A stretch of DNA of 64,000 nucleotides from a virus. Lineage: Duplodnaviria; Caudoviricetes. Below, piece by piece: positions 23,468 through 29,360 of this stretch. The stretch is from positions 64,001 through 128,000 of the IMG/VR virus record IMGVR_UViG_3300047160_009226; one strand, written 5' to 3'. Both the position numbers and the translations under genes were made by a program. A model generated the notes under the pieces. That model was not told the DNA's origin, made no database searches, and saw only the letters and a list, made by a program, of their open reading frames with translations. Numbering within the stretch: position 1 is the first letter of the stretch; each line of letters starts with the position of its first letter.

Positions 23468-25804
23468 TTAGTGACCACTAGGACGTCTGTGCCGGATGAT
23501 CGTGTCCAACACGTTGTCGAGAGTAATCAACGTAGTGGGCTCGCTCACCGCTCCGATAGCATTAATGGCCCCGGTACCGGTGGACTGCGCATCAAAGTTC
23601 TGCACGATCGTCGTCGGACTGGCCCAGAACAGACCATAGTACACACCGGCCGCACCAGGTGCCCAACCCGGTGACGTCGGGGTGGCTGTAGCCGAGGTGG
23701 TGCCCCATGGATTGTATAACTCGTACGGCTGGCTGCTCGCCGGGTTGTAGCCGACAACAGCGTAGACATGGGGGCCGACAATGTGAGAATCGACCGGCGT
23801 GCCAGTGTCCATCACAATGAGTTGGCCTGCATTCCATGCAGCAGCGATGTTGCTGGGGTTGACGGTATAATTCTCACTAGCGGGCTTGCCGGTGATGGCT
23901 TGCAGCGCCGTTGAGGGCCAGCCGCCGTTGATTGCACTGTAGGAGTTTTGGTATGTCTGAGCAGCCCCCACATAGCCATAGCTGCTGGCCACGACATACG
24001 CCTTCTCGGCCAGAGCAACCCAGAGCACCTGGGTGCCTAGGGCGTTGCCAATATGGGCGTAATAGCTGCCACCGGAGGGGAGTTCCGTATCCACAACAAC
24101 GTGCACTGCAGATCCATTGCTCTCGAAGAATCGGACCGAATAGACTCCAACCGTGGCCCCATTCTCGACGGTTGTTCCGTCGTAAGTAAACATACTCGTG
24201 ATGTCCTGGGGTGCCCTGGCCGCAACTTCAGCCAAACTTCCAAGCAACCAGCAATCTCCAACTTGCCCCTGCTGCACATCCAGATAAGACGGTCCCCCAC
24301 CATTGAAGAGCGGCACACCAGCAGGAGCAGGTGAGTAGGGCGTGTTCGCCGTCGGATTGGAGGACGGAACTGGAACAGGAGCCGGAGTCAGCAGATGCAA
24401 CACCCATTCCTGGTTCAGAGCACCATCTCCATGGTACTGAATCACCTGAGTTCCATTGGCAGCCGCCCAGCCATTAGAGTCCAGGTACAGGCCGCTCTTG
24501 GCGTTGACGACGTTATAGTTGCCGTCGCAAAGCTGGACCAGCTTCCATTCTCCGGCGAGAGTACCGTCGTTATGGTACTGGATCATACCGGTCCAGTCAG
24601 CGGTTGACGCATAGCAGTCGTTCAGGTCCAGGCCGCTCTTGGCGTTGACGACGTTATAGTTGCCGTCGGAGAGTTGGACTAGATTCCACTGCTGGTTCTG
24701 ACCACCAGTGTACTGATTTTGAACAACCGGAGCCCAGTCGTAGGGCGATGAGTTGTTGTCCAAGTACTTGCCACTGTAGGCGTTGGAGATCGTAACCGTC
24801 CCGCTGATCGGGGCCGTGGTCAGCGGATGCAGCACCCACTGCTGGTTGTTAATGCCTCCGTTATACTGCCACTGACATGTGAATGCACCGTTGGCAGTCG
24901 AATACCCGTAGTCATCCAGGTACAGATGACTATAGGCATTGATGAGATTGTAATTGCCGTTGGGCAGCAGGACCGGCTTCCACTGCTGGTTCAACCCTCC
25001 ATTGTTGTACCACTGAATCATCCCGTTCCCGTTAGCAGTCGAAAACGCGGCGTCATCCAGATTCTTGCCACTCTGGACGTTGACAACGTTGTAGTTGCCG
25101 TTGGAAAGCTGGACCATCTTCCACTGCTGATTCTGACCACCAGTATACCGATTCTGGACGATCGAAGCCGCGTCATATAATGACGAGTTGTTGTCCAAGT
25201 ACTCATTGCTGCAGACATTGGAGATCGTGAACGTCTGGCCGTTGAGGTTCGATGGTGGAGTCACCACATGCAGAACCCACTGCTGGTTCGTATACCCTCC
25301 GTTGTACTGCCACTGCTGGACCTGAGTGCCATTAGCAGTTAACTGCCACTGAGCATCCACGTACAGACCATTCCAAGCGACAATATCGTAGTTGCCGTTG
25401 GAAAGCGGTGTCACTTTCCACTGTTGGTTGGCATAGCCGCCATTGTTCTGCCACTGCTGGAGCTTGGTGCCGTTGGCCGTCGATCCCCAAGGATCGTCCA
25501 GGTAATCGCCGCTCTGGGCGTTAATGATGCTGTAGCTGCCGTTGGACAACTGGACCAGATTCCATTGCTGGTTGGCAGTGCCGTTGTACGAGTTCTCGAC
25601 GATCGGAGCGCCGTTATTAGTCGCACCGTTGTTGTCCAGATAGTTGCCGGTTTGGACGTTGGAAATCGTGAACGTGGTCAACAACTGGCGATTCTCGACC
25701 TGGTCCAGCGCCGGCCGAAATCGACGTCGAGACTTGGATGACCCAGAACTGGATCGCCCAAAGCCCGTAACACGAGATAAGAAACCTTGACGAATCGTCT
25801 GCAC
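23468..25804 (-). CDS. Planctomycete-type exported protein: three RICIN beta-trefoil lectin domains + calpain-like (C2) cysteine protease
   Basis: AGGAG SD + GTG at 25804; RRRFRPALDQVENRQLLT signal; many QQW repeats; QGQVGDCWLL (Cys), HVYAV (His), YNPWG (Asn). Confidence 0.9.
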   Translation of the reverse strand: MQTIRQGFLSRVTGFGRSSSGSSKSRRRFRPALDQVENRQLLTTFTISNVQTGNYLDNNGATNNGAPIVENSYNGTANQQWNLVQLSNGSYSIINAQSGDYLDDPWGSTANGTKLQQWQNNGGYANQQWKVTPLSNGNYDIVAWNGLYVDAQWQLTANGTQVQQWQYNGGYTNQQWVLHVVTPPSNLNGQTFTISNVCSNEYLDNNSSLYDAASIVQNRYTGGQNQQWKMVQLSNGNYNVVNVQSGKNLDDAAFSTANGNGMIQWYNNGGLNQQWKPVLLPNGNYNLINAYSHLYLDDYGYSTANGAFTCQWQYNGGINNQQWVLHPLTTAPISGTVTISNAYSGKYLDNNSSPYDWAPVVQNQYTGGQNQQWNLVQLSDGNYNVVNAKSGLDLNDCYASTADWTGMIQYHNDGTLAGEWKLVQLCDGNYNVVNAKSGLYLDSNGWAAANGTQVIQYHGDGALNQEWVLHLLTPAPVPVPSSNPTANTPYSPAPAGVPLFNGGGPSYLDVQQGQVGDCWLLGSLAEVAARAPQDITSMFTYDGTTVENGATVGVYSVRFFESNGSAVHVVVDTELPSGGSYYAHIGNALGTQVLWVALAEKAYVVASSYGYVGAAQTYQNSYSAINGGWPSTALQAITGKPASENYTVNPSNIAAAWNAGQLIVMDTGTPVDSHIVGPHVYAVVGYNPASSQPYELYNPWGTTSATATPTSPGWAPGAAGVYYGLFWASPTTIVQNFDAQSTGTGAINAIGAVSEPTTLITLDNVLDTIIRHRRPSGH

Positions 25805-27097: not shown

Positions 27098-27126
27098 ACT
27101 ATACTACACACATCGCACTTTTTTTC
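27098..27126 (-). promoter_or_regulatory. Phage promoter P11 (GAAAAA-N17-TATAGT)
   Basis: Consensus variant. Confidence 0.65.
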
Positions 27127-27140
27127 CAACTTTTTTTCTG

Positions 27141-28028
27141 CTACATTAATTTTGTCAGTGATTTTCCTACCGTAATATCAACAATCAAGGTAAAATCCGA
27201 ATGTGCGTTTTCTAGGCACTCTCGATAAACTGATGATATAAGTTCAACGTGCTCGTTTGGTGCAAATAGGTATGCTGAATACGGTGTGAGAGCAAAAATC
27301 TGAGACTCTAACCTACCAATTCTATAATCCTCGAAGAGATTGATGAACCCCATCTTTGCCAGATCCATTGCAGTCGATTCAATCGGAAATTCCACCACAA
27401 ACCTCGATCTCTCTGATTCAATTTCAGGAACTATAGCTGTCCGCCCAAATAATGAAGATACAATATTCTGTGACTTCGCCAAATTATGAATAAATGACTT
27501 AACGTCAATCCCTGAATCATTAGCAAGTTTTTGAACGACCTTCGATATAATGTCAGAATAAGTTGCCTTGATTAATATCCGATCTTGACGACTAATCGCC
27601 ATCAAAGATTCTTCAGGAAGATCATTCAGCGCCAATTCACTGATAGTAGTAATCTTCCCATTCATATCCAAATCATATTTCGGATAAAGTCCAAATGAAC
27701 GATCCAGTATCTTAGAATTCCCATTGGCTAAATCATAAACCTGCTGGAGTTTCCGGATCAAAGAACCGAGTACCCTGGACCCTAGAATTTGATTCAAAAC
27801 AAGCTCTGAATCTATCACTTGCATAGCTTGATGCCAATGATCATCAGAGTCAATATTAACTGTAAACCCAACTTTACGATTAATTGTTTGCTTCTGTTCG
27901 GCTAGTTGCCTCTGAAACCCTTGGATCATACCTAGTAATTTCTTTTCATCTAACGAGATTCCCGTCTCTGCAAGACTTTGAAATAAGGGCCTCATACCCG
28001 CATCGATCCTTTTATAATTCATGCGCAA
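27141..28028 (-). CDS. Catalytically inactive, fingers-less family A DNA polymerase homolog
   Basis: Collinear similarity to PolA thumb and palm; motif A reads ATYSDII, motif C reads TPYS, motif B absent. Confidence 0.75.
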   Translation of the reverse strand: MRMNYKRIDAGMRPLFQSLAETGISLDEKKLLGMIQGFQRQLAEQKQTINRKVGFTVNIDSDDHWHQAMQVIDSELVLNQILGSRVLGSLIRKLQQVYDLANGNSKILDRSFGLYPKYDLDMNGKITTISELALNDLPEESLMAISRQDRILIKATYSDIISKVVQKLANDSGIDVKSFIHNLAKSQNIVSSLFGRTAIVPEIESERSRFVVEFPIESTAMDLAKMGFINLFEDYRIGRLESQIFALTPYSAYLFAPNEHVELISSVYRECLENAHSDFTLIVDITVGKSLTKLM

Positions 28029-28033
28029 CTATC

Positions 28034-28264
28034 TCACTTGAGAAGTGGTGCTCTGCCCATCACACGGTTGGCTAACTCCTGCTCAACCGCATCAAACTCA
28101 TCTTGATCTTCCGGTGTTGAAACATGATCCGCTAAGTATACCCCTCTGGCCGTAAGATCTCGGATATGAACAGAGGTGATCTGCCATAATAAAATCGGAA
28201 TTTTACCTAAAGCTTGAAATTCTGCCAGAACTTCTTCAGGTGTCGGGTTGGTTGTCTCGGCCAT
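28034..28264 (-). CDS. Small hypothetical protein
   Basis: 76 aa, AAGGA SD. Confidence 0.6.
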   Translation of the reverse strand: MAETTNPTPEEVLAEFQALGKIPILLWQITSVHIRDLTARGVYLADHVSTPEDQDEFDAVEQELANRVMGRAPLLK

Positions 28265-28267
28265 CCT

Positions 28268-28552
28268 TTATCTCCCCTGGATAAATTCCCAGTCTTGACC
28301 CATCACGTCTTCAATAGATGGGCACCATCCAAAAATAGCTGTCTCGCTGTTCATAATTAGGCTCATCCCAAACGTCAGGAATTCGGGCTGCTTTATACCA
28401 CCATCATCATATTTAACGACTGCCATCGGAGCCCCTCCTGTATCCACTCCTAAAAGGAGGTGCATGTTCGGTGACCATATTCTCCTGCGTACCCTAATTT
28501 GAGTATCATTCTCCATCGCGATATAACTTTCGCACATGGACTTAAAAGTCAT
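28268..28552 (-). CDS. DUF2829 / Tad2-like anti-defence protein
   Basis: MTF...VRRRIW...MHL...GWCPSIEDVMGQDWEF fits the DUF2829 pattern; 94 aa. Confidence 0.65.
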   Translation of the reverse strand: MTFKSMCESYIAMENDTQIRVRRRIWSPNMHLLLGVDTGGAPMAVVKYDDGGIKQPEFLTFGMSLIMNSETAIFGWCPSIEDVMGQDWEFIQGR

Positions 28553-28692
28553 AATATGCTCCTGAAAAATAAAAAAAGAGGCCTACGTCCCTCCATGAGA
28601 CCCAGGCCATAAAATAAATCTCCATGACTCCATTACTTCCTAAAATAAAAAGATCTTTACACCGCCTCTAATTCAACGTCCTTCACAAGCTG

Positions 28693-29244
28693 TTAATATA
28701 CAGTCGGCTCACTAGGTAAAGACCGATAGGTTTGAAGATCCTTCAAAATCCCCATCAACCTATTGATCCCTTCGGGAGTACCAGCACGTCGATCAATATA
28801 TCTCACGTCAGTAATTCGATGCCCACATCGCAATTCATCTTTCACTTTATCCTCATCCCATCCATAAGGAAGTGGATCAGGTAGAATCAAAAACGGGACA
28901 TCACGAAACCTCTCCTCCTTGAAATCGACATATCCTGTAGGAATGGCATTGTCACCCGCTCCCGACCAGAGATCAGCTGGATCAATATTCCATGCCTCAG
29001 CTAAGAGATTAAGCCCATGCCCTTCCCAGAGATGGTAATGCCACTCTTTGGGATCTCCTGATCCTTTTAACATCTTCCACTCACCATTCGGCAAAGGAAA
29101 CCATAAGAAACTTTCAAAACACGGATTGTCATAATGAGCAGCATTACGCCGAATCACACGCCGTAATCGCTCCATTCTTTCATCATCCCTTCCCTCACCA
29201 ACTCTCATCTCATTAATCTCCCTCGAATTTAAATGCTGAGTCAT
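28693..29244 (-). CDS. Hypothetical protein
   Basis: ATG after GGGG SD, downstream of P12. Confidence 0.65.
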   Translation of the reverse strand: MTQHLNSREINEMRVGEGRDDERMERLRRVIRRNAAHYDNPCFESFLWFPLPNGEWKMLKGSGDPKEWHYHLWEGHGLNLLAEAWNIDPADLWSGAGDNAIPTGYVDFKEERFRDVPFLILPDPLPYGWDEDKVKDELRCGHRITDVRYIDRRAGTPEGINRLMGILKDLQTYRSLPSEPTVY

Positions 29245-29278
29245 GATAATTTCCCCTTTAAAAAAGAAAGTCACATAT

Positions 29279-29307
29279 ACTATACTACAAACTAAGTCGA
29301 ATTTCTA
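29279..29307 (-). promoter_or_regulatory. Phage promoter P12 (TAGAAA-N17-TATAGT)
   Basis: Consensus variant overlapped by a 12-bp hairpin. Confidence 0.7.
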
Positions 29308-29360
29308 CGGAAATTCGACTTTTTCTTTTCTATTTAGTACCTTAAGCCAGGTAATCCTTC

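Follow-up and report, generated by a model that had tools for sequence, protein, structure and literature searches.

Does a small gene carried by a large uncultured soil phage encode a sponge for a nucleotide immune signal and, if so, which signal would its product bind? The gene lies in a 200,689-bp IMG/VR virus record that is estimated to be 91% complete, and it is therefore phage-encoded; we analyzed bases 64001-128000 of this record, a stretch of 64,000 nucleotides referred to here as the window. Long ORFs in the window are nearly all on the minus strand, as is the gene of interest, a 94-aa Tad2-like (PF11195/DUF2829) coding sequence at 28268..28552. Its annotation draws on the ORF itself, Pfam, a structural model, Foldseek searches and dN/dS.

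The ATG of the ORF occupies 28552-28550, and sequence reading places a Shine-Dalgarno sequence, AGGAG (28559..28563, minus strand), 6 nt ahead of it. This site reads CAGGAG in four of the five loci compared (that of the phage itself and those of four metagenome relatives). The public gene call (P0001) is 82 aa long and starts at Met13 of the 94-aa ORF. We favor the longer start, because the first 12 residues (MNFKSMCESYIE) are kept in 11 of 12 close homologues and because the Shine-Dalgarno sequence fits it. Orthologues sharing 48-70% identity, as confirmed by tblastn, lie on four contigs from soil metagenomes (L002-L005), and pairwise dN/dS against these four ranged from 0.12 to 0.30. These observations indicate that the gene is real and under purifying selection.

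A preliminary description of this DNA had assigned the product to the DUF2829 family from its size and from motifs at its two ends, and had proposed an HMM search as a check. Both motifs are present (V21-x-R23-x-x-W26 and G75-W76-x-P78-S79-x-x-D82-x-x-x-x-D87-W88), and the search matched the Tad2-like profile PF11195 over residues 20-90 (profile positions 15-72 of 73) with 29.4 bits (E=1.2e-6), about 4 bits higher than the curated Pfam cut-off of 25 bits. The assignment is thus borne out by the HMM, and likewise by the predicted fold and the conserved core residues described below. When the entire 200,689-bp record was searched in six frames, a single PF11195 copy emerged, at 28.1 bits. All of the nearest clusters in a language-model atlas were PF11195, and the PHROG matches were to families of unknown function. 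Similarity to the sequences of solved Tad2 proteins was weak (E 0.009-0.05) and concentrated in the C-terminal motif; a profile built from the clade of close relatives aligned to a profile of 33 homologues resembling phage SPO1 Tad2 over 85 columns (E=2.6e-4, probability 42%).

This clade is small. A word-indexed search yielded 12 relatives in addition to the protein of the phage itself, and an exhaustive search of 1.8 billion representatives returned 11 proteins at E<=1e-3, three of them spurious. Several members score 22.6-22.9 bits, short of what Pfam requires, or have no precomputed Pfam domain. A tblastn search of 50,697 GenBank phage records with the protein as query gave no relative from a cultured phage, and when the clade alignment was used to scan IMG/VR, the only member was in the phage's own record. 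None was present among 185,579 genomes of prokaryote species that were also scanned, so that no prophage copy points to a host. The motifs GWCPS, MGQDW and IWPPN are absent from the part of the Hadary et al. supplement that was compared. Candidate fused forms of Tad2 (P0021-P0023) were rejected as spurious matches to long He_PIG/Ig-repeat proteins, and no fused form is known.

Together, these results place the 94-aa protein within the known Tad2 family as a divergent representative, belonging to a clade seen only in one soil-phage lineage. Tad2 sponges are a well-described counter-defense family, for which a study published in 2025 collected 2,783 non-redundant homologues, so that another member is in itself unsurprising. 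The interest of this clade is that it sits at the edge of Pfam detection and has a variant loop found in just one tested homologue, and that many of its members are still unannotated "hypothetical proteins."

An AlphaFold2 monomer model built from 20 clade sequences (mean pLDDT 79.5, pTM 0.68) contains a helix at residues 3-12, five strands and a short helix at 80-84, a topology like that described for SPO1 Tad2. When the model was compared with the PDB by Foldseek, ranks 1-24 were all Tad2 chains (SPO1 Tad2, ModTad2, HgmTad2/AcrIIA7 and SptTad2), with probabilities of 0.99-1.00 and TM scores of 0.51-0.67, although E values were only 6e-3 to 9e-2. VIA-align placed ten Tad2 entries in a row with Z scores of 6.9-7.8, a range that is middling by the tool's own caveat; we nevertheless give these scores weight, because all of the top rows belong to one family and the sequence evidence concurs. 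In the BFVD viral structure library, the named entries among the top 40 were nearly all Tad2-like or DUF2829. Ranking after Tad2 in the structural comparison was a small mitoribosomal protein from plants, Polytomella and Tetrahymena (9EVS_Z, 8A22_Bz and 6Z1P_Bz; Z 5.3-6.7), and below it came Sm/LSm proteins with Z of about 3; both sets of matches probably reflect a common small-barrel-like arrangement.

The top Foldseek match is SPO1 Tad2 (gp34.65; 8SME/8SMF/8SMG; probability 1.0, TM 0.54-0.67; VIA Z 7.1-7.6). It is of similar length (89 versus 94 aa), with the same predicted topology and a short central insertion, and its residues W25, W73, S76, D79, D84 and W85 are kept here as W26, W76, S79, D82, D87 and W88. 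The two proteins differ in that GWNGK has become WSPN, with one deletion, T78 has become E81 and H71 has become F74; helix 1 of the window protein is also about 4 residues longer, and pairwise sequence similarity is limited to the 27 C-terminal residues. ModTad2 (9EIB, 8V3E), a sponge for His-ADPR and cUMP, scores Z 7.0-7.2 in VIA (9EIB: rmsd 2.3 A over 64 residues) and has the C-terminal W-x-P-S-x-x-D...DW motif in common with the window protein, but retains GWNGK and carries Ser where SPO1 Tad2 has T78. HgmTad2/AcrIIA7 and SptTad2 (8KBI-8KBM, 8WJD), sponges for gcADPR and cyclic dinucleotides, share the core fold (VIA Z 6.9-7.8) and the W/W/D core; they differ in carrying an insertion for cyclic dinucleotides that the window protein is missing. 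That insertion, 35-41 residues between strands 2 and 5, is the element through which HgmTad2 and SptTad2 bind cyclic dinucleotides (10.1101/2023.11.15.567273). In our model only about 21 residues (36-56) separate the strands at 30-36 and 57-67. Cyclic dinucleotides, which the preliminary description had also raised as ligands, are therefore unlikely here.

We compared the pocket residue by residue with those of solved members, taking the correspondence between SPO1 Tad2 and the window protein from the profile alignment. SPO1 Tad2 holds gcADPR through van der Waals contacts from W25 and W73, polar contacts from N26 and D79 that reach its phosphates and hydroxyls, a hydrogen bond between T78 and the adenine, and nonpolar contacts from I63 and T65; waters are coordinated by D67, H71 and S76 (10.1101/2023.05.01.538930). 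In HgmTad2, N22 and G23 of both protomers bind the diphosphate, and the mutants W21A/N22A and S90A/T92A/D93A no longer bind (10.1101/2023.11.15.567273). Five of the SPO1 positions are kept in the window protein: W25 (W26), I63 (I66), W73 (W76), S76 (S79) and D79 (D82). D67 is changed conservatively to E70. The remaining positions are altered: N26 is S27 here and Pro in most clade members, G27 is deleted, T65 is N68, H71 is F74, and T78 is E81, with Glu or Asp at this position throughout the clade.

Six residues (R23, W26, W76, D82, D87 and W88; R22, W25, W73, D79, D84 and W85 in SPO1 numbering) are invariant in an alignment of the clade, the SPO1-like proteins and two tested homologues considered below (no. 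72 and no. 69). From this invariance we conclude that the aromatic/Asp core of an ADPR-type pocket is intact. Conservation within the clade also peaks at the W26 loop and the G75-W88 segment, which are the pocket-forming elements in solved structures. Conversely, the GWNGK phosphate loop, common to practically all of 120 SPO1-like homologues and to every solved Tad2 whatever its ligand, is replaced by WSPN here and by WPPN in most clade members, one residue shorter. The pattern W-[PST]-x-[NGS] occurs in 18 of 19 clade homologues (the sequence of the 19th starts past the loop), WNG occurs in none, and the clade has added a basic pair, RR[RK], beside the remodeled loop. The C-terminal motif is W-[CS]-P-[SP]-[IV]-[ED]-D in the clade versus W-x-[AP]-S-Q-[TS]-D in SPO1-like proteins; within the S76-Q-T78-D79 segment, S79 and D82 are retained and T78 is E81, a position at which the active homologue no. 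72 has Ala. As judged by these alignments, the putative phosphate loop and adenine contact are remodeled across the clade.

A set of 18 Tad2 proteins was cloned by Hadary et al. 2025 (10.1101/2025.08.24.671296), whose Table S2 lists the tested Tad2 homologues against seven defense systems. Three of these systems were assayed in B. subtilis (Thoeris types I and II, Bacillus Pycsar) and four in E. coli (Thoeris type IV, E. coli Pycsar, two CBASS systems). W-P loops occur in three of the tested homologues, no. 72, no. 69 and no. 80. For Tad2 no. 72 (108 aa; loop RRKAWPKN), whose C-terminus reads GWAPGDADIKSTDW, Table S2 gives n / N/A / y under type I Thoeris and a negative score for each of the other six systems. 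According to the Methods of that study, any gene for which the 96-well transformation failed was introduced again on its own and tested by plaque assay, and an identical n / N/A / y entry marks the T4 Acb2 control under 3'3'-cGAMP CBASS, which T4 Acb2 is known to block. On the basis of this text and this control row, we read the code as a positive result. The active no. 72 thus carries WPKN, so GWNGK is not strictly defining for Tad2. The other two, no. 69 (SWPQG) and no. 80 (EWPDDG), inhibited none of the seven systems (10.1101/2025.08.24.671296).

Among all proteins compared, no. 72 was the best match to the clade profile (probability 84%, E=7e-6, 77 columns), and BLASTP aligned it with the window protein over its full length at 26% identity (E=8e-5); for this comparison its sequence was taken from IMG/VR (L018:4001-4327), where it is identical. 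The profile match to no. 69 had a probability of 44% (E=2.4e-4), and BLASTP of the window protein against no. 69 gave no match. No. 72 resembles the window protein in its loop (RRKAWPKN versus RRRIWSPN) and in the same C-terminal GW-x-P-x-x-x-D-x-x-x-x-DWE. It differs in having a long HgmTad2-like insertion (108 versus 94 aa), Ala in place of Glu81, an origin on an unrelated phage contig and low overall identity. Because the nearest tested relative inhibits type I Thoeris and has the same type of loop, the odds for a cADPR-type ligand are raised despite the lost Asn and Gly. A caution comes from no. 79, which inhibits type I and type IV Thoeris although its C-terminal motif lacks an Asp at the SPO1 D79 position (10.1101/2025.08.24.671296): in the Tad2 family, pocket sequence by itself predicts poorly.

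The window carries a host-derived lectin-protease gene (23468-25804), relatives of which occur in MAGs of Isosphaeraceae or other Planctomycetota at seven of eight loci (L023-L029), with 40-69% identity in their best segments. The relatives of this one gene support Isosphaeraceae (Planctomycetota) as the likely hosts. In the family of one such MAG, ThsB-type TIR domains scored above the Pfam cut-off in 25 of 61 sampled genomes, versus 1 of 14 control genomes. Stand-alone TIR proteins of 151-177 aa match ThsB/TIR PADLOC models (L035, L037, L039 and L041); one small TIR gene adjoins an IetA-like AAA ATPase and another adjoins a mad2-like gene. No canonical ThsA was found among the neighbors of the four host-family TIR genes that were inspected. 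These gene surveys make TIR signaling in the likely hosts plausible. For a large phage of likely Isosphaeraceae, this is a setting in which the interplay of phage and defense is essentially unstudied and TIR-domain genes are frequent.

Taking fold, pocket and relatives together, we consider the protein a candidate sponge for a nucleotide signal of some kind, with a probability of roughly 60%. By analogy with solved members, this small stand-alone protein would assemble as a homotetramer whose pockets are predicted to be lined by the aromatic clamps W26 and W76 and by S79 and D82. These pockets would enclose and sequester an ADP-ribose-derived signal made by a TIR protein, most likely the 3'cADPR of type I Thoeris; with the signal sequestered, the host effector would stay inactive and the phage could replicate. 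In this scheme we infer the tetramer, the binding and identity of the ligand, the timing of expression and the use of such a signal by the host. A cADPR isomer, probably 3'cADPR, is accordingly named as the predicted ligand only tentatively, at well under even odds.

The identity of the ligand is where the most serious alternative arises, namely that the protein is a Tad2-type sponge for something else: His-ADPR, N7-cADPR, a cyclic mononucleotide held in a second pocket at the dimer interface, or an undescribed Planctomycetota signal. Changes in specificity are known among Tad2 homologues, as ModTad2 (His-ADPR and cUMP), Tad2_71 (N7-cADPR) and HgmTad2 (cyclic dinucleotides) illustrate, and the clade-wide remodeling of the phosphate loop and adenine-contact residue, together with the added RR[RK], could mark another such change in a clade confined to one soil-phage lineage whose likely hosts are poorly studied. 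Moreover, 19 of 84 tested sponge homologues inhibited none of the seven systems, for which the authors suggest possible unknown signals (10.1101/2025.08.24.671296). Against this stand the activity of no. 72, the closest tested relative with the same loop type, on type I Thoeris, the intact W/W/D core of the ADPR-type pocket, and the replacement of the 35-41-residue cyclic-dinucleotide insertion by about 21 residues. On balance we regard a different ligand as unlikely. Were the ligand to lie outside the set of known signals, a new immune signal could be captured with the protein as bait, in the way that His-ADPR was with ModTad2. A related proposition, which we find less likely again, is that the pocket evolved for an undescribed signal of Planctomycetota, TIR-derived or another nucleotide, or else that the protein is part of a three-gene module with its two downstream neighbors, a 76-aa protein and a dead PolA.

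The genes that share a unit with the sponge candidate are all on the minus strand. Four genes lie between two copies of a phage promoter: an upstream gene of up to 193 aa (28693..29274) with no domain recognizable by Pfam, PHROGs or NCBIfam, the Tad2-like gene, a 76-aa gene (28034..28264) and, as the last gene of the unit, a PolA-like ORF (27141..28028). The 76-aa gene, known from the ORF list and from the same order in relatives, begins 3 nt past the Tad2-like stop and is probably co-translated. The PolA-like ORF was recognized through a sub-threshold PF00476 match (25.1 bits versus a cut-off of 34.3) and an NCBIfam PolA match (E=6e-8) that is far below that model's cut-off. The Tad2-like gene is probably co-transcribed with the 76-aa gene and the dead PolA. 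The preliminary description had counted it two genes from the PolA-like ORF, which is correct, and had taken this as a hint of an anti-defense cluster, a suggestion that gained no support: searches of the neighbors with Pfam, PHROGs and NCBIfam revealed no anti-defense domains. In IMG/VR, the dead PolA had no relative and a Dda-like helicase had only distant ones.

Comparison with four metagenome loci, of which three are shorter than 2 kb, showed the same order, Tad2-like, 76-aa, PolA-like, as far as each contig extends (L003 stops within the 76-aa gene); every relative that goes far enough has the PolA-like gene downstream of the Tad2-like one. Each stop directly adjoins the next start in L002, L003 and L005, and L004 has one inserted 99-aa gene. 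The slot upstream differs. In relatives it is occupied by a gene of 160-232 aa that bears a minimal nucleotidyltransferase signature (a sub-threshold match to DUF6036/NTP_transf_5 with E of about 2e-4; L002:5334-6032, L003:2-484, L004:25-522), followed by a 73-aa Cys-rich gene, and in their place the window has unrelated 133-aa and 193-aa genes. The arrangement looks like a variable slot adjoining a conserved trio.

These features could be taken to mean that a protein with the Tad2 fold is no sponge at all and instead acts as a small-molecule- or protein-binding subunit with the 76-aa and dead PolA-like proteins. The three genes keep their order in all five loci, with stop-start gaps of 0-3 nt in four of these, they all lie between two promoter copies, and they stay constant while the genes upstream of them change. 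However, the five loci represent one phage lineage (50-70% identity), so the linkage to PolA may simply be inherited gene order, and in L004 the 99-aa gene separates the Tad2-like and 76-aa genes. The characterized proteins in the Tad2 papers cited here are not reported to need a partner, and conservation within the protein falls on known ligand-pocket elements. We therefore hold a joint role of this kind to be improbable. Least probable of all is that this is a conserved small phage protein of DUF2829 fold whose anti-defense role is absent or undetectable in heterologous hosts, which would suit the Pfam score of just 4 bits over the cut-off, the lack of phenotype of no. 69 and no. 80 and the PHROG matches to families of unknown function, but sits poorly with purifying selection, a conserved pocket core and the fact that most Tad2 homologues in Table S2 inhibited at least one system (10.1101/2025.08.24.671296).

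The phage-specific promoter motif, GAGAAA-N17-TATAGT, has 19 matches in the window versus 6.6 expected. One copy, TAGAAA-N17-TATAGT at 29279..29307 (minus strand), was found by the motif scan and also appeared in a sigma-70 scan; judging from its position and motif, it is the probable start of the transcription unit. The next copy, also on the minus strand, is at 27098-27126, and none lies between the two. A perfect 12-bp palindromic hairpin (29294-29321; AAGTCGAATTTC / GAAATTCGACTT) overlaps the -35 element of the 29279-29307 copy, and the hairpin and promoter at 29279-29321 form a predicted terminator-then-promoter junction between gene cassettes.

A second hairpin lies between this promoter and the Tad2-like gene, directly 5' of the ribosome site. 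It is a terminator-like element (GGCCTGGGTCTC / GGGACGTAGGCC) followed by a T-rich run (a U-run in the RNA) at 28565..28608 on the minus strand, and it is present in all five loci; a terminator scan caught part of it. The leader as a whole extends over 28565-28640 in the window and over L002:6275-6349, L003:716-790, L004:542-616 and L005:188-262 in the relatives. RNAalifold gives a 14-bp inner stem, the fold of the single sequence has an energy of -28.3 kcal/mol (z = -2.9), and three pairs show double changes. An outer helix pairs GGAGAU with the U-run and with CAGG beside the Shine-Dalgarno sequence, which it partly covers. By its structure the hairpin could be an attenuator, a terminator of the upstream gene, an RNA stabilizer or a translational control element, and, placed between the nearest promoter and the gene, it is a possible limit on Tad2-like expression. 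A conserved block just 5' of the hairpin was considered as a promoter and rejected, being present as a single copy in the window with no repeat.
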